Positions 372 through 26,143 are shown, counted from the stretch's first letter. The stretch is 64,000 bases of DNA from Candidatus Bathyarchaeota archaeon (GCA_026015185.1 JAOZGX010000047.1:3475-67474); one strand, 5' to 3'. Program-made: numbers and translations. The notes: generated by a model not told the origin, from the letters alone.

Positions 372-1451
372 TTATATTTTATTTTTAATATACTCAGCTA
401 TATGTTCTCCAACTTGAGTGCAATTCAATTTCCCACTAAGCTCCATAGGCAATTGTGTACTCGATAGCATCTTCTCTATAGCCTTCTCTATTGCGATCGA
501 TGCCTTTAAGCAACTATTATCGCGGTAAGCCTCTGCCAAAAATTCAAACATGAGAGAGATGCTTCTAATCATCCCTATTGGATTGGCTTTCCCAGTTCCC
601 GCTATATCTGGAGCAGAACCATGAGTGGGTTCAAATAAACCTATTTTTTTCTCAGGATTCATATTTGTTCCAGCGGTCATACCTAGTCCCCCAGCTATTT
701 GTCCTGCTAAATCGCTAAGAAGATCGGCCAAAAGATTTGTTGAAACAATAGTATCGAATTCATGGGGCCTTCTTACGAGATGGGCAGTAAGAGCGTCCGC
801 ATAATAATTCTCAAATCTAATTTCAGGATATTCAGATGAAATGTCTTCAAAAGCTTTGGAGAACATTCCGTGACTTTTTCGAATAATATTTGCTTTATGT
901 GCACAAGCAACTATGCCTTTTCCGATCCCATTTTTCAATCTCCTCATTGCATAATTAAATGAGAAACGGGCTATGCGTTCACAGGTTTCTTGTGTGTATA
1001 CTCCGGTTACTGTCCATACCCCAGGAATGACCTCGTTCTCCATAGCCCTATATATTCCCTCTGAATTCTCCCTTATCACAACTAGGTTTATATCTGGTCT
1101 CAGAGCTGGTGGGCAAATGTTAGGATAGGATATCGCCGGTCTAATATTTACATAAAGTCCGAATCTTTTTCTGAAAGCTAAAAAAAGATCTCTTACACTT
1201 TCACCTACAGGTCCTTTTATACCTGCATCGCATTCTTGAAAGATCTTAATCGATTCTTCTGGAACTGCCGACCCTGTTTCTTTTTTAACCGCATCACCAG
1301 CGGGTGCAGCTCTATATTTGACATTAATATTATAAGCTTCTCCAATAGCACCAATGACTATTTTTGCAGCATTCATAATTTCTGGGCCGATCCCGTCACC
1401 CTGTATCTCGCAGATCTCATAAGTTTTACTTCCCATCTCTTTTCCTCCCAA
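372..1451 (-). CDS. Isocitrate/3-isopropylmalate dehydrogenase family (beta-decarboxylating dehydrogenase)
   Basis: 359 aa. N-terminal GDGIGPEI motif and the overall length and architecture fit the IDH/IMDH family. The true start may be the internal ATG (MGSKTY) at about 1436. Confidence 0.75.
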   Translation of the reverse strand: MGGKEMGSKTYEICEIQGDGIGPEIMNAAKIVIGAIGEAYNINVKYRAAPAGDAVKKETGSAVPEESIKIFQECDAGIKGPVGESVRDLFLAFRKRFGLYVNIRPAISYPNICPPALRPDINLVVIRENSEGIYRAMENEVIPGVWTVTGVYTQETCERIARFSFNYAMRRLKNGIGKGIVACAHKANIIRKSHGMFSKAFEDISSEYPEIRFENYYADALTAHLVRRPHEFDTIVSTNLLADLLSDLAGQIAGGLGMTAGTNMNPEKKIGLFEPTHGSAPDIAGTGKANPIGMIRSISLMFEFLAEAYRDNSCLKASIAIEKAIEKMLSSTQLPMELSGKLNCTQVGEHIAEYIKNKI

Positions 1452-1545
1452 TCTTCATCATGCTATTGATTACATTTTAGAATACCACCGATTTTGGATT
1501 CTTATTAAATTTTGTTGTTCTACAATTTACGCAAAAATATATAGA

Positions 1546-17281: not shown

Positions 17282-17893
17282 CTATTTTTTACTTTTTTGA
17301 CCTATTGGGCAAGCTTTCATGCATTCAAAACAATCATAGAAGATGCCTGAAGTTGTGGATTGCCAAATCCTCCAAAATGTGGGGTCCAAAAAATAATTTT
17401 TTAGATAATTGTCGATATCATTCGTATCCACTATTTTTTTTCTAAGACCAATCAAGCCAAGTATGCCGTATTTTATGTTCTCCTTAACGCATTTATTGAC
17501 ATCAACCCCATCATCGGTTATAGCATTAACTGGACATGCACTAGCACAAAACTTTTCACAACCTTTGCAAAGATTTTCATGATACTCTTCATCCTGCTCC
17601 AATTCAGCTGAAGTCAGAACTGTAGCTAACCTAACCTTGGTCCCTAAATTTGGAGTTACTAATAATCGGCAATACCCCAAGCAACCTAAGCCTGCCTTTG
17701 CTGCAAGATGTCTATGTGAAACATCACCGAAAAGACCTTTAGTTTCAATGCTCATTTCGACTGGGATATATGGTGAAAATGTTATTGCTTCATATCCTTT
17801 CTTTTCAAGAAATCTAACAAGCCTATAGGATATTTGACTTAATTCTTGCATTATACCATAGGTGTCGTATTGAAGTGGCCTGATATTTTTCAA
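17282..17893 (-). CDS. 4Fe-4S cluster protein (QueG/reductive-dehalogenase-like ferredoxin domain); N-terminus likely extends upstream
   Basis: CxxCxxxCP motifs (CKGCEKFCASACP; CFECMKACP). The open frame continues upstream to about 18040 with conserved-looking sequence and no canonical start. Confidence 0.45.
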   Translation of the reverse strand: MKNIRPLQYDTYGIMQELSQISYRLVRFLEKKGYEAITFSPYIPVEMSIETKGLFGDVSHRHLAAKAGLGCLGYCRLLVTPNLGTKVRLATVLTSAELEQDEEYHENLCKGCEKFCASACPVNAITDDGVDVNKCVKENIKYGILGLIGLRKKIVDTNDIDNYLKNYFLDPTFWRIWQSTTSGIFYDCFECMKACPIGQKSKK

Positions 17894-18249
17894 TCTGAAA
17901 GTACTATTTGAATGCTTACATCCAATTACTATGGCTTTATTGAATTGGTTAATATCTTTTTTATCTTCTATTTTATAATCAGAACTGCCGAAATCGCATA
18001 TACCAACTAAATTAGCGCCTGATTTCTCTGCGCATTCCTTTATCTGAGTGGATAATTTAAAAATTAATACACCTTCTGCTTATCATCAAATTCATTATCA
18101 TTAATTTTAATTCTATGGAATATATATCGGTATTCTCTTTTTTTTAGTTTGTATTATGTAATAAATCACAAAATTTTAGAGTAATAACCTACAATTAAGT
18201 GAAATTTTTAATTCTTTGCATTCTATTATGATAATTGGGCAACTAAACT

Positions 18250-22505: not shown

Positions 22506-23645
22506 TTAAAGAGCTTTAAACTCCTCAAACCACTTCTCATAATGCCTGATAGTATTAGGAGAAATGCTTGGTTTTCTTCTCTTGAAAATTTCTGAGAAAT
22601 CATTCATGTCAATATATCTTGGAGCAGTATTCTTGTCTTCCGGATTGCCATTCTCAAATAGATCTCTTACCACTTTGATTTGAGCTGATTGAAAGATATC
22701 TCTTATATCGCTTCCAGAGTAGCCAGCAGTCATTTTTGAAAGTTCATTGAAATCAACATTGGGAGATATCTTAAGATTTTTTGAAAACAGCTTAAACATT
22801 TCTGATCTTGATATAGCATCAGGTAAAGGAACAAAGATCCTTTTCTGAAACCTTCTAATGAATGGGTGATCCAGTGCCCAAGGTTTATTGGTGGCACCTA
22901 TAACGTAAGAATGTGTAGATTGGTTTTTGTCCAAAATCCCGTCCATTTCTTTAAGAAATTGATTTCTCGCTCTAGCTTCGCCACCCACTTCACCAACACT
23001 ATATCTAACTAAAGAATCTATCTCATCAATGAAAATGATCGCTGGTTGATCATTAGTGCTTTTTTTCTTAGCATCTTTAAAAAGTTGTGCAACATTCTTT
23101 TCGGATTCACCAAGCCATTTTGACATTATTGAAGCTGCATCGACACAAAAGAAAGTTGCATCGATTTCGGTAGCAATAGCCGCAGCCAGTAATGTTTTTC
23201 CACAACCAGGAGGACCAAAAAACAATATACCTCCTGGCCACCCAAGTGGAAACAGATCAGGTCTTTTTGCAGGAAAAACTATTGATTCTTCTATAGCCTT
23301 TTTTGCTACTTTTAAATTAGCAATGTCGCTCCATCTAACGGAGGGCTTTTCGGTCAATACTAATTGATCAAATTTAGCTTTACCTTCATCAGAGGGTAAT
23401 AAAGTTGAGTCTTGACTTTCTGGTTGGCCACTTAAGGATTCAATCCTTTTTTTGTAAGACTCCACATGTTCCATGTATATTTTATTTTGAGGTGAATTCG
23501 GATATAGTGCACAAAGTTTCAGTAAAATTTCAATAGCCCTTTGAAATTTTGCAGTCGCTAATCCTCTGGAACCTTGTTGATCTAATTGAATAGCCTCTGA
23601 AGCATATTTGACAGCTAATTTTTCTAATTCTTCAGAAGCGGACAT
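22506..23645 (-). CDS. cdvC: CdvC / Vps4-like AAA+ ATPase with N-terminal MIT domain
   Basis: MIT-like helical N-terminus, Walker A GPPGCGKT, Walker B IIFIDEID and second region of homology. ATG at 23645 is preferred over the upstream GTG. Confidence 0.85.
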   Translation of the reverse strand: MSASEELEKLAVKYASEAIQLDQQGSRGLATAKFQRAIEILLKLCALYPNSPQNKIYMEHVESYKKRIESLSGQPESQDSTLLPSDEGKAKFDQLVLTEKPSVRWSDIANLKVAKKAIEESIVFPAKRPDLFPLGWPGGILFFGPPGCGKTLLAAAIATEIDATFFCVDAASIMSKWLGESEKNVAQLFKDAKKKSTNDQPAIIFIDEIDSLVRYSVGEVGGEARARNQFLKEMDGILDKNQSTHSYVIGATNKPWALDHPFIRRFQKRIFVPLPDAISRSEMFKLFSKNLKISPNVDFNELSKMTAGYSGSDIRDIFQSAQIKVVRDLFENGNPEDKNTAPRYIDMNDFSEIFKRRKPSISPNTIRHYEKWFEEFKAL

Positions 23646-23678
23646 AAACACCACAAGACCATTTTTTATTCAAGCTTA

Positions 23679-24233
23679 TTATTCGATTATCACTTTTCCT
23701 TCCTTTTTCAGGTAATCTACCGCTCTTTTCACATCCTCTGGAGTAACTTCTAACCAAGAGGCACATTCTGTAATGCTTAAATCACCTTTACGTTCTTTCA
23801 GATAATCATAAACTCGCTCATACAATGGCAATGCTTCTCCATCCGTTGTTAAAGCTACAGGTTCAGGTTTGTTTGACTCTTTGGAGAATGTTGGGAAATC
23901 TGGTATATCGGGGAATTGTTCTTTAATTCTCTGTTCAGCAAGTATATTTGATTCTTCTAAAACCTTTTTTGCTTCTTGATTTGCAGCAACTTCCTCAATA
24001 TTTCTTACCGATGGTACAGCTGCTTCGGTACTTAACTCGTTTAGCATAGAGTTGACATCTTCAATACCACTAGCCACTTCGGGAACAAAATCTGAAATCC
24101 TATTTTCAGTTTCTTTTAAAATGCTCATTACTGGGTTTAGATTTGTCAGAACGTCTTTAAATTCGGAAATCCTTTGAAGTCTAATAACAACCTTTTCTAA
24201 AGAAAGCTGACTACTTATTGCTAGTTTTACCAT
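23679..24233 (-). CDS. cdvB: CdvB paralog (ESCRT-III) with MIM2-like motif and C-terminal winged-helix-like domain; real N-terminus encoded upstream (to about 24446) without canonical start
   Basis: The annotated ORF starts mid-Snf7 domain. The upstream in-frame sequence encodes ...LKDKLSQVIYQLNDQ...AKIYANECAEIRK, contiguous with MVKLAISSQ. The C-terminus contains FPDIPDFP and LSITECASWLEVTPEDVKRAVDYLKKEG. Confidence 0.6.
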   Translation of the reverse strand: MVKLAISSQLSLEKVVIRLQRISEFKDVLTNLNPVMSILKETENRISDFVPEVASGIEDVNSMLNELSTEAAVPSVRNIEEVAANQEAKKVLEESNILAEQRIKEQFPDIPDFPTFSKESNKPEPVALTTDGEALPLYERVYDYLKERKGDLSITECASWLEVTPEDVKRAVDYLKKEGKVIIE

Positions 24234-24465
24234 TTTCCGTATTTCTGCACATTCATTCGCATAGATTTTTGCATGTGAAAAATCCTTAGTAACTTGAGCG
24301 CCTACACACTTTTGGAGGATTTCTTTGTCTCTTTGCTTAAGTTTTGATATAGAGTTTTCTAGGTTTTCTAATTGATCATTGAGCTGGTAAATTACCTGCG
24401 ATAATTTATCTTTAAGAGATTTAGAGGGGAGAATCTTTCCCTTTATCCTCTCGAGGATTGAAATC

Positions 24466-25458
24466 TCAAAAATCCTCCCTTATTTTAACTATAATTTTAT
24501 CTTTTGGTTCATCTGAAGTTGTTTGGGTTTCTTCTTCCTCAATGGTTGAAGAAGTCATGTCGTCTTTTGGTTCTTCTGAAGTGGCCTGGGTTTCTTCTTC
24601 ATCTATGGTTTCTTCTTTATCCGTGGTTTCTTCTTCTTCCTCTTCTTCTTCCTCTGTTGAAGTTACATCATCCTTTAATTCTTCGTCATCCGTGGTTTTT
24701 TCTTCATCCATGCTTGTAGAGGTCATGTATTCCTTTGATTCATCTAAAGTTGTTTGGGTTTCTTCTTCCTCAATGGTTGAAGAAGTCATGTCGTCTTTTG
24801 GTTCTTCTGAAGTGGCCTGGGTTTCTTCTTCCTCTGTTGTTGAAATAACTACCTTAGTTTCGTCAAAGCTAATAATTTCTTTAGAAATGTCATCAATCTT
24901 ATTTTTCTCTTTTAGTGCACTCTCAATATGCTTTTGGATGATTTCTTGACAAGGTTTGAATGTCACCTCGTCCATTTCTCCCGAATGAAATTGCATTTTA
25001 TTATTGGCAAAAATAATTTGAAGTTCATTTATTTTATTGATCAGATCTTCCTTTCTCTTTTCTGCTTTTTCTAAAATATTTTCACGCGACTCTTTTATTT
25101 TTGAAAATGAGCTTTCATAATTGCTTTTCAATGATTTATAGAATTCTTCACGTATTTCTCCAGATTTATAAAGTTCATCTAGTGCATTGATTCTCTTTCT
25201 CAAAGTATTAAGCTGTCTTAGTATCCCTTTTGCCTCTTTTTCCCATGGCGGCAGGCAAATAATTCGCCCTTGCTCAATAGCCACTTGATTTATAGGGTAC
25301 TCAATGAATTCGCCTTTTCCTGATAGTGTCTTAATGGATTCAGCTTTATTATTAGCATCTAACTCAAGATTAATTATCTTGCCTATTGTTCTTCCGTAGG
25401 CATCAAAAACAGACTCGCCTAAGTATTTCTTAATTTCTTCCAAATTTTTTTCCTCCAA
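24466..25458 (-). CDS. CdvA-like paralog with long acidic Thr/Glu-rich repetitive C-terminal tail
   Basis: N-terminal PRC-barrel-like region plus coiled coil, homologous to 19545-20162 (IICLPPWEKEAKGILRQLNTLRKRINALDE vs IVIIPEWKIQAEQMIKELNTFRSRMDALE). Then about 130 aa of TTEEEETQ(A/T)TS(E/D)EPKDDMTSS repeats. Confidence 0.6.
   Translation of the reverse strand: MEEKNLEEIKKYLGESVFDAYGRTIGKIINLELDANNKAESIKTLSGKGEFIEYPINQVAIEQGRIICLPPWEKEAKGILRQLNTLRKRINALDELYKSGEIREEFYKSLKSNYESSFSKIKESRENILEKAEKRKEDLINKINELQIIFANNKMQFHSGEMDEVTFKPCQEIIQKHIESALKEKNKIDDISKEIISFDETKVVISTTEEEETQATSEEPKDDMTSSTIEEEETQTTLDESKEYMTSTSMDEEKTTDDEELKDDVTSTEEEEEEEEETTDKEETIDEEETQATSEEPKDDMTSSTIEEEETQTTSDEPKDKIIVKIREDF
24500..24600. 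repeat. Direct repeat copy 1 (~100 bp, ~95% identical to 24731-24831) inside the CdvA-like tail coding region
   Basis: catctgaagttgtttgggtttcttcttcctcaatggttgaagaagtcatgtcgtcttttggttcttctgaagtggcctgggtttcttcttc recurs with 2-3 substitutions. Confidence 0.85.
24731..24831. repeat. Direct repeat copy 2
   Basis: See copy 1. This encodes the repeated peptide KDDMTSSTIEEEETQTT. Confidence 0.85.
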
Positions 25459-25474
25459 TTTTATTTTTTTAATA

Positions 25475-26143
25475 TCAGGTTTGTGATTGTTCTCTGGTTC
25501 TATAATCCGAGGCTTGAGTGGAATCTGATTCCATAGATGTAAAGTCTGGGAATTTCTCTTTCACTCTCTGCTCAGCCACTGTTTCAGCCTCGCCTAAAAT
25601 TTTGCTAGCTTCTGAGCTTGGTGCTTCTGTATTAATATCTTGACCAGTGGCTTCACCTATCTCAACTACCATACCATTGAGTGTCTCCCCAATATCATCA
25701 AGTTCATAGGACATTTCAGGCATTATACCACTGATTTGTGTCTTCACAGATCTCACGACTTCGGTAACAGGTCCCATTAAAGCAGCAAATTCTCCAAATT
25801 CACGAATTGTTTCTAATCTTAATGATACTTGTTCTAAGGCAAGTTGACTCCTAAGAGTTATTGCAGCCATCTTTCTTACTTCAGCACACTCATTAGCGTA
25901 CATGGCAGCTCGAGCAGAGTCTTTTGTCATTTGGGATGAGACACATTTATCAAATAATTCTCTGTCGTGTCGTTGCATCCTCATTACAGCATTTTCTAGC
26001 TTATTTTGTTGAGTTCGTAACCGGTAAATAGTTTTCGAAATTTTTTCCTTAAGACTCGGTTGCTGCTGTAGTATACCTGAGAATTTTATATTAACGGGTG
26101 GACTTTCATCTTTATCCCAGTTTTTTATCCTATTACTTGGCAA
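25475..26143 (-). CDS. cdvB: CdvB (ESCRT-III/Snf7 family)
   Basis: Snf7 core (MYANECAEVRKM, LALEQVSLRLETIREFGE) and a C-terminal FPDF motif. 222 aa. Confidence 0.8.
   Translation of the reverse strand: MPSNRIKNWDKDESPPVNIKFSGILQQQPSLKEKISKTIYRLRTQQNKLENAVMRMQRHDRELFDKCVSSQMTKDSARAAMYANECAEVRKMAAITLRSQLALEQVSLRLETIREFGEFAALMGPVTEVVRSVKTQISGIMPEMSYELDDIGETLNGMVVEIGEATGQDINTEAPSSEASKILGEAETVAEQRVKEKFPDFTSMESDSTQASDYRTREQSQT

Follow-up and report, generated by a model that had tools for sequence, protein, structure and literature searches.

A CdvB-class cell-division gene of a Candidatus Bathyarchaeota archaeon that has no canonical start codon and probably begins at an AUU behind a Shine-Dalgarno sequence within cdvA

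The DNA analysed here is a stretch of 64,000 nucleotides (nt) from a Candidatus Bathyarchaeota archaeon (GCA_026015185.1, JAOZGX010000047.1:3475-67474), which we call the window and in which all positions are counted from the first letter. Our subject is cdvB, a gene for an ESCRT-III homologue whose reading frame offers no canonical start codon where its protein should begin. The gene lies on the minus strand, with a proposed span of 23679..24464 that encodes 261 amino acids (aa) and ends in a TAA stop, and it belongs to a compact cluster of nine genes on the same strand (19.5-26.2 kb) that includes cdvB1/2, cdvA, cdvB and cdvC. The genes and codons on which the description depends are as follows.

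25475-26143, minus strand: cdvB1/B2-type paralogue, first gene of the cluster (Pfam, NCBIfam, alignment with the extended CdvB)
24466-25458, minus strand: cdvA, with a PRC barrel and the CdvA coiled coil (PF18822, 4.5e-18; PF05239; NCBIfam CdvA)
23679-24464, minus strand: proposed full-length cdvB coding sequence (open frame; NCBIfam, Pfam and AF2/Foldseek matches)
22506-23654, minus strand: cdvC/Vps4, with MIT, AAA and Vps4_C domains, immediately downstream of cdvB (NF041006, 9.5e-154)
24480-24482, minus strand: in-frame TAA, the upstream limit of the cdvB frame (read from the sequence)
24231-24233, minus strand: internal ATG used by gene callers, giving a truncated product of 184 aa; rejected here as the real start (no Shine-Dalgarno sequence ahead of it)

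The cdvB frame is limited upstream by the TAA at 24482-24480, and its first ATG, GTG or TTG is the ATG at 24233-24231 (MVKLAISSQ...). The 82 codons (246 nt) between TAA 24482 and ATG 24233 contain not a single ATG, GTG, TTG or CTG. A preliminary description, made from the sequence alone, had stated that the first canonical start falls in the middle of the Snf7 domain and that the frame stays open upstream to this same stop without ATG, GTG or TTG, and both statements hold. The translation of the upstream stretch is GRIFEISILERIKGKILPSKSLKDKLSQVIYQLNDQLENLEN...AKIYANECAEIRK. With codon frequencies taken from 50 window genes, a run of 82 sense codons free of canonical starts has a probability of about 0.019, and the stretch is the longest of its kind among the long open reading frames (ORFs) of the window.

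Read from the ATT at 24464, the frame encodes the N-terminal part of an ESCRT-III protein. From residue 6 onward, the extended protein shares 37% identity with the paralogue at 25475-26143 over an alignment of 193 aa, and the Pfam Snf7 family PF03357 matched the 261-aa protein with 29.1 bits against a cutoff of 27.3. The alignment with the NCBIfam CdvB1/B2 model NF041005 began at residue 2, and the CdvB model NF041008 was aligned end to end, residues 15-261 corresponding to model positions 19-259/260. When the Protein Data Bank (PDB) was searched with phmmer, residues 3-194 matched Sulfolobus CdvB2 (5.4e-36) and residues 20-190 matched S. islandicus CdvB (4.2e-29). An AF2 model of the 261-aa protein, built from an alignment of 81 sequences, reached a predicted local distance difference test (pLDDT) score of 79 and exceeded 90 at residues 21-90; the ESCRT-III helices were present, helix alpha1 started at residue 17, and the top Foldseek matches were the Sulfolobus CdvB2 filaments and CdvB (9s98, 9s9j; best E 8e-11). 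The preliminary description had proposed that the upstream stretch encodes the missing helices and is homologous to the CdvB paralogues, and at the protein level the paralogue alignment, the Snf7 match and the NCBIfam models bear this out.

The upstream stretch is also under frame-specific purifying selection. Proportions of synonymous (pS) and nonsynonymous (pN) differences were obtained by Nei-Gojobori counting in seven diverged lineages. The 76 codons from ATT 24464 to the internal Met had a pS of 0.5-0.9 and a pN of 0.04-0.26, and the next 70 codons behaved in the same way. In the 23 codons right after ATT 24464, pN/pS was 0.38 in the cdvB frame compared to 1.15 and 1.31 in the other frames, and in the six codons upstream of 24446 it was 0.34 in frame compared to 0.76 and 1.80 out of frame. 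We are highly confident that the N-terminal region of cdvB is translated and that the gene is intact.

A contrary explanation would be that translation from ATG 24233 yields the 184-aa product alone, or that the gene is a decaying pseudogene. This codon is the sole canonical start, and Prodigal-type callers do give products of 182-189 aa in five relatives, namely P0002 and P0003 (96-98% identity) and P0009, P0018 and P0060 (60-62%), all found by homologue search. Such fragments in five relatives are themselves the signature of an absent canonical start. The 77 codons upstream of ATG 24233 are, however, under no less constraint than the remainder of the gene, no Shine-Dalgarno sequence stands before it, and the internal Met is replaced by Val in two lineages (L009 and L011). 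Orthologues that start at the internal Met had been named in the preliminary description as evidence that would count against an upstream start; the orthologues were looked at and do not do so, and L009 and L011 have Val there. In the 184-aa form, the ESCRT-III hairpin would be missing alpha1 and the greater part of alpha2, and the Snf7 match is lost, since Pfam returned none for it even at E<=1. Truncation or decay is therefore highly improbable in our judgement.

A non-canonical start further inside the frame was also weighed, at ATA 24446, ATT 24434 or ATT 24392. The first two had been put forward as candidate initiators in the preliminary description; both codons exist, but neither is supported as an initiator, being unconserved and preceded by constrained codons. 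At the position of ATA 24446, L010 has a GTG that was taken as the start by a gene caller, but four of the seven other lineages have GTA there and only one GTG. A weak AGGA lies 9 nt ahead of ATT 24434, but five of the seven lineages compared with the window read CTC there. The third codon has been used in a public record:

24390-24392, minus strand: ATT used as the start in NCBI MCW4032623.1, probably too far downstream (upstream codons constrained)

MCW4032623.1 (P0111; 'Snf7 family protein [Candidatus Bathyarchaeota archaeon]', 237 aa), which falls in the same 90% cluster, equals the window protein downstream of its start. It begins with MYQLND and was thus annotated from ATT 24392, so that public annotation has already resorted to a non-canonical start. 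This position is TCT in L004, however, no Shine-Dalgarno sequence stands at a useful spacing, and the codon falls inside helix alpha1, which begins upstream of it. Codons upstream of 24446, 24434 and 24392 are all under frame-specific constraint, and the alignments with Sulfolobus CdvB2 and the NCBIfam models already begin at residue 2-3 when the protein is read from 24464. A start at any of these three codons is very unlikely.

The end of cdvA and the beginning of cdvB share one arrangement in eight distinct lineages with 59-98% protein identity. These lineages were drawn from independent JGI, ENA, NCBI and Logan assemblies, by means of fetched contigs and a metagenome scan that contributed three members of the clade; a scan of a genome collection with the single CdvB protein returned one distant locus only. 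In the cdvA frame, the junction of all eight lineages reads AGG GAG GAT TT[TC] T[GA]A and ends in REDF*, and in the cdvB frame it reads TAA GGG AGG ATT T[TC]T [GA]A[GA] AT[TA] TCA. Five metagenome assemblies made independently within the species-level group of the window (the window itself, L002, L003, L012 and L017) show no difference at the junction. A sequencing or assembly error, either an indel in the run of five Ts or a single-nucleotide change, could in principle mask either a canonical start or a genuine fusion of cdvA and cdvB, and the loss of one T from this homopolymer would indeed join the two genes in frame. An indel artefact is excluded, however, because the five assemblies agree and because the lineages with an interrupted run (TTTCT) retain the same frame layout, and we give hardly any credence to an error of either kind.

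The signals at the junction are listed below, with ATT-1 and ATT-2 denoting the two ATT codons that may serve as the start.

24474-24480, minus strand: putative Shine-Dalgarno sequence AGGGAGG inside the last cdvA codons (GGAGG at 24478-24474), part of the invariant AGGGAGGATTT
24471-24473, minus strand: ATT-1, alternative AUU start, with an 8-nt overlap with cdvA; invariant in the clade
24466-24468, minus strand: cdvA stop codon, TGA in the window and TAA in L012, 1 nt ahead of ATT-2
24462-24464, minus strand: ATT-2, favoured AUU start, 9 nt after GGAGG and 1 nt after the cdvA stop
24427-24440, minus strand: pyrimidine-rich segment AAAGAUUCUCCCCU, cdvB codons 9-13 counted from ATT-2, which can pair with the Shine-Dalgarno arm at 24479-24468

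The 11-nt block AGGGAGGATTT (24480-24470), located within the last codons of cdvA, is invariant in the eight lineages and is the longest such block in the junction alignment. The synonymous sites that flank it are saturated (pS 0.7-0.9), and its codons are minority choices, AGG making up only 19% of the Arg codons and GAG only 32% of the Glu codons in the window. Invariance beside saturated neighbours, together with minority codons, points to conservation of the nucleotides themselves, as a Shine-Dalgarno sequence would require, and on this pattern we read the block as holding the Shine-Dalgarno sequence of cdvB. In window genes with a clear Shine-Dalgarno sequence, the spacing from GGAGG to the start is mostly 6-10 nt, as in the Alba gene (9 nt to ATG), cdvA (8 nt to its likely start, TTG 25443) and gene 1436 (7 nt to ATG); the leader of the P. 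abyssi aEF1A mRNA has GGAGG, 8 nt and AUG. For cdvB, the spacing from GGAGG is 9 nt to ATT-2 and 0 nt to ATT-1. The codon at ATT-2 is ATT in seven of the eight lineages of the clade, and this position is probably the start.

ATT-1 would be the start if cdvB were reached by termination-reinitiation with little help from the Shine-Dalgarno sequence, and the product would then be (M)FEISILERIK.... This codon is invariant in the whole clade, L008 included, and is aligned exactly with the GTG start of most of the distant Bathyarchaeia orthologues (MVAFSIF..., MIAISFL...) and also with the ATG type MPFSIIKK. An overlap of 8 nt is among the three commonest overlap classes (PMC10666635), and some canonical orthologues have only 2 nt from an SD-like GGAGG or GAGG to ATG or GTG. 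On the other hand, the zero spacing departs from the 6-10 nt of the window genes, and the invariance of ATT-1 is already accounted for by the cdvA codons GAT TTY and the Shine-Dalgarno sequence. The two codons after ATT-1 vary non-conservatively in the cdvB frame (F/S, E/K) and silently for cdvA (TTT/TTC, TGA/TAA). We consider initiation at ATT-1 unlikely.

The position of ATT-2 relative to cdvA suggests that the two genes are translationally coupled. Coupled gene pairs have been recognised by a stop-to-start distance of -8 to +10 nt and a Shine-Dalgarno sequence in the 3' end of the upstream gene (PMC10666635); here ATT-2 lies at +1 nt and ATT-1 at -8 nt, and the Shine-Dalgarno sequence lies inside the 3' end of cdvA. 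Termination-reinitiation works in this narrow range in Haloferax and E. coli, and coupled pairs are enriched for interacting proteins or subunits of a complex (PMC6728339, PMC10666635). In Sulfolobus, CdvA and CdvB are direct partners, through the E3B peptide and a broken winged helix, and an excess of the winged helix blocks division (PMC12909875). From the geometry of Shine-Dalgarno sequence, stop and AUU, we infer that AUU 24464-24462 would initiate cdvB, led by the GGAGG at 24478-24474 that is embedded in the cdvA 3' end. Ribosomes ending cdvA would probably feed cdvB, either by termination-reinitiation or by opening a stem that occludes the Shine-Dalgarno sequence. A weak AUU would restrain the synthesis of CdvB and link its level to that of the partner CdvA.

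With regard to such a stem, in each of the eight lineages the Shine-Dalgarno arm GGGAGGAUUUUU can pair with AAAGAUUCUCCC, which lies within cdvB 28 nt further downstream (window 24427-24479). The stem was kept by RNAalifold in 8/8 lineages, with 96.9% of cells paired compared to 66-80% in slid controls, and variation within it is restricted to C/U or A/G with the pairs preserved. A hairpin that sequesters the Shine-Dalgarno sequence is possible at this junction. It would block de novo initiation of cdvB until a ribosome finishing cdvA opened the stem.

Several observations weigh against this account. The ATT-2 position is ATA, not ATT, in L008, and the GTG/ATG starts of distant orthologues fall at the ATT-1 column or the next codon, three codons upstream of ATT-2. 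The GGAGG motif by itself is weak evidence, because it occurs 88 times in the window (both strands), mostly within genes. The Shine-Dalgarno block also doubles as code for REDF, the conserved C-terminus of CdvA, which is kept across the clade as ..I[IV]V[KR][IV]REDF* and resembles a beta-strand motif. In E. coli, AUU initiation reaches about 0.3% of that at AUG (cited in PMC10666635), and archaeal aIF1 rejects AUU in vitro in S. solfataricus extracts (PMC4705826). As for the hairpin, no compensatory changes were found in the stem in the eight lineages, and the single-sequence fold had a z-score of -0.06, the window fold being no better than shuffled sequence. Taking these points together with the evidence above, we consider it likely that cdvB starts at a non-canonical ATH codon at the cdvA-cdvB junction, be it ATT-2 or ATT-1. 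To Shine-Dalgarno-led AUU initiation at ATT 24464-24462, probably coupled to cdvA and yielding a 261-aa CdvB that begins (M)SILERIKGK..., we assign a probability of roughly 0.6.

A second gene in the window has a comparable start:

17282-18064, minus strand: second gene with a Shine-Dalgarno sequence and ATT, encoding a 4Fe-4S protein (Shine-Dalgarno sequence AAGGTG at 18075-18070, 7 nt, ATT at 18064-18062)

The window was scanned for a Shine-Dalgarno sequence followed after 5-11 nt by ATH ahead of the first canonical start, and two strong cases only were returned, cdvB and ORF 17282-18079. In the latter, the first canonical start lies 62 codons into the open frame and gene callers cut the protein to 189 aa, but the peptide encoded upstream is aligned with the N-termini of orthologues at 57-58% identity. 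The protein has weak, sub-threshold similarity to QueG and reductive dehalogenases. In a relative with 93% identity (L097:1-400), a TGA directly precedes the ATT, so that the ATT is the first codon open to the conserved N-terminus; the T-run beside it differs in this relative by substitution and not by an indel.

Among 75 distinct junctions, 51 had a canonical start at the aligned N-terminus, 22 had ATH only and 2 had neither; among the junctions without a canonical start, three belong to other paralogues, with frames that extend further upstream. Two other Bathyarchaeia lineages without a canonical start show a Shine-Dalgarno sequence and then ATC or ATT 8 nt on, at the homologous position. 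The junction of L063/65/66 reads GGGAGGGATCTGAA, followed by ATC at the position aligned with ATT-2. In L057, L060, L074, L077, L082, L083, L087, L090 and L091-93, cdvA (...DIVIVRMEP) and cdvB are in the same frame with one TAA or TGA between them; after the stop comes GAG GGA TC without variation, and in most of these junctions ATC or ATT stands 8 nt after GAGG. L074 has TTC at that position with a TTG two codons later, and L057 has TTC at the start position and no candidate start at all. A different case is L020, in which an ATA stands where its sisters (L021, L022, L013) have ATG (~1495-1510; AIPFSIIKK compared to VMPFSIIKK) behind the same upstream GAGGAGG, and which looks like a natural replacement of ATG by ATA. 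That AUU, AUC and AUA serve as regular starts genome-wide in this archaeal class is a tentative and rather doubtful extension; if true, it would imply relaxed discrimination by aIF1 or the initiator tRNA.

The prfB gene of E. coli offers another way to dispense with a start codon. At its frameshift site, a slippery codon followed by UGA is closely preceded by an SD-like element, and the downstream frame is at +1. A programmed +1 frameshift of this type at the end of cdvA, with tRNA-Phe slipping from UUU to UUU, would produce a CdvA-CdvB fusion of about 590 aa that carries the junction peptide ...IREDFEISILER (REDFEISILER). The window does resemble prfB in layout: the cdvB frame is +1 relative to cdvA, GAT TTT TGA G allows perfect re-pairing while a stop codon occupies the A site, and 2 nt separate the SD-like AGGGAGG from UUU_UGA downstream. 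The Bathyarchaeia lineage with both genes in one frame, a single stop between them and no canonical start after it also fits a recoded junction. Unlike in prfB, however, the slippery U is not conserved. UUU_UGA is present only in the window, L012, L008 and L010; about half of the clade (L007, L004, L009, L011, L019) has UUC_UGA, where UCU cannot re-pair with tRNA-Phe, and the junction of L063/65/66, GCT_TAA, is not slippery. The identity of the cdvA stop switches between TGA and TAA within the clade, and no fusion orthologue was found among 101 homologues, the longest of which has 293 aa.

Nor did RNAalifold reveal a covarying downstream stimulatory structure, and an Rfam scan of 23400-25600 gave only a sub-threshold, snoRNA-like chance match. 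In the passages retrieved from a review of archaeal recoding (PMC8211752), the sole case was a -1 frameshift, in the fucosidase gene of S. solfataricus, and none was of the +1 kind. The second ATT gene (17282-18064) has no upstream ORF from which a shift or readthrough could proceed, which favours plain Shine-Dalgarno-led AUU initiation in this organism. We regard a prfB-type frameshift as improbable. The same applies to a broader version in which the junction is a recoding site, with a +1 shift at UUU_UGA in the clade of the window and stop readthrough in the same-frame lineage, and in which the fusion nucleates the division ring.

The C-terminal part of the protein bears on its class and carries two predicted elements.

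23892-23915, minus strand: MIM2-like motif FPDIPDFP, residues 184-191 (fits phi-P-x-phi-P; alignment with LPDLPHP)
23691-23858, minus strand: C-terminal winged-helix domain, residues ~203-258 (AF2 strand-strand-H-H-H, pLDDT 80-90)

The MIM2 core is phi-P-x-phi-P, and the CdvB class combines Snf7, MIM2 and a broken winged helix (PMC8970359). The motif in the window protein is aligned with LPDLPHP of S. islandicus CdvB 9s9j, FPDIP occupying residues 184-188, and F184 and P185 are invariant in 81 homologues. Pfam winged-helix families gave sub-threshold matches only on the C-terminus. The alignment from the PDB sequence search stopped short of the domain, and a separate C-terminal model was therefore needed. 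Foldseek matched this 66-aa model to the winged helices of Lrp/AsnC, DeoR, MntR and Z-alpha, and to 2xvc_A, the S. solfataricus CdvB winged helix with CdvA E3B (TMt 0.71; root-mean-square deviation 1.5 A over 47 columns; prob 0.98; E 0.42); for so small a domain the E-values are weak (0.1-0.5). The protein missed the NCBIfam equivalog cutoff for CdvB (NF041008), with 144.4 bits against 370. By its predicted architecture, an ESCRT-III core followed by MIM2 and a winged helix, it is a CdvB-class protein and not an equivalog of the Sulfolobales CdvB. The MIM2-like FPDIPDFP and the winged-helix-like module noted in the preliminary description were recovered, the former by its alignment with LPDLP and the latter by superposition of the predicted structure on 2xvc_A. 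Its further suggestion of a Sulfolobus CdvB-type architecture agrees with the domain layout and with the adjoining cdvA and cdvC.

After cdvC, the cluster continues with an Lrp/AsnC regulator, an FtsX-like permease, an ABC ATPase and a further pair of cdv genes.

20818-20201, minus strand: second cdvB1/B2-type gene (NF041005, 1.5e-52)
20162-19545, minus strand: second, shorter CdvA-like gene at the end of the cluster (NF041007, 1.3e-21)

This gene order is conserved in the relatives L004, L007 and L013. Within the first cdvA, the acidic C-terminal half of the protein is encoded by tandem repeats (24589-24834, minus strand), with a 63-nt unit present 2.2 times and an 18-nt unit present 6.9 times. 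This repeat region differs between the window and the close relatives L002, L003 and L017, and the cdvA of L002 was called as three fragments. Elsewhere in the window (1423-1545, plus strand), a 41-codon open stretch without a canonical start lies ahead of GTG 1546, which opens a 574-aa ORF; the translated stretch (VLLPISFPPNLHHAIDYILEYHRF...) has a non-coding look.

The absence of a canonical start has consequences for annotation. Gene finders drop the first 77 residues of CdvB for this reason, and Prodigal-type callers shorten the protein in at least five relatives to 182-189 aa, which removes alpha1-alpha2 and the Snf7 signature. Two of the truncated fragments (P0002, P0018) carry the misleading names 'myo-inositol-1-phosphate synthase' and 'response regulator of citrate/malate metabolism'. 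This could lead comparative surveys of Cdv/ESCRT systems to overlook or mis-class the winged-helix CdvB of Bathyarchaeia. In Crenarchaeota, CdvA binds CdvB through the winged helix, and the Thaumarchaeota protein is without it (PMC8970359); a winged-helix CdvB in Bathyarchaeia bears on this contrast. Both CdvB dosage and the interaction between winged helix and CdvA are critical for division in Sulfolobus (PMC12909875). Roughly 20 of 72 distinct cdvB junctions from Bathyarchaeia are without a canonical start, and these, together with the unrelated 4Fe-4S gene, would be natural substrates for studies of start-codon fidelity in archaea (aIF1). A literature search on AUU starts in Bathyarchaeia or other archaea gave nothing specific, and within the literature searched, conserved archaeal AUU starts are essentially undocumented. 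What appears to be new here is the probable AUU initiation with putative translational coupling in an archaeal cell-division operon, kept over deep divergence and mis-annotated publicly, where the conserved junction speaks for the AUU start and the gene geometry for the coupling.

Compared to the CdvB of Sulfolobus and Saccharolobus (Saci_1373, SSO0910), which has a MIM2 and a broken winged helix binding the CdvA E3B peptide, the window protein is alike in its length of 261 aa, the order of its parts, the proline motif, the predicted winged helix and the neighbouring cdvA and cdvC. Foldseek comparison with Sulfolobus structures gave an E of 1.7e-8 and 33% identity for S. islandicus CdvB 9s9j, and 35% identity for the CdvB2 filaments. 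It is unlike them in its Bathyarchaeia host, the extra cdvB1/2 before cdvA, the lack of a canonical start and the NCBIfam score (144 vs 370 bits). In the S. acidocaldarius protein, MIM2 spans residues 183-193, the linker 194-211 and the winged helix 212-253 (PMC12909875). The junction resembles described termination-reinitiation pairs in that the genes are co-directional, the Shine-Dalgarno sequence lies in the upstream 3' end and the two proteins interact in Sulfolobus, but those pairs restart at ATG, GTG or TTG (ATGA, TGATG), whereas here the codon is ATT. With the bacterial infC (IF3) and further genes initiated at AUU, cdvB shares a conserved AUU behind a Shine-Dalgarno sequence and a dosage-sensitive product (PMC4705826); no autoregulatory logic is evident for the cdvB AUU, because the gene does not encode an initiation factor. 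The two differ in that archaeal aIF1, not IF3, polices the starts, and in that the AUU of cdvB stands 1 nt after an upstream stop, a position that suggests coupling. Such coupling, together with a strong Shine-Dalgarno sequence, may be what renders the AUU usable.

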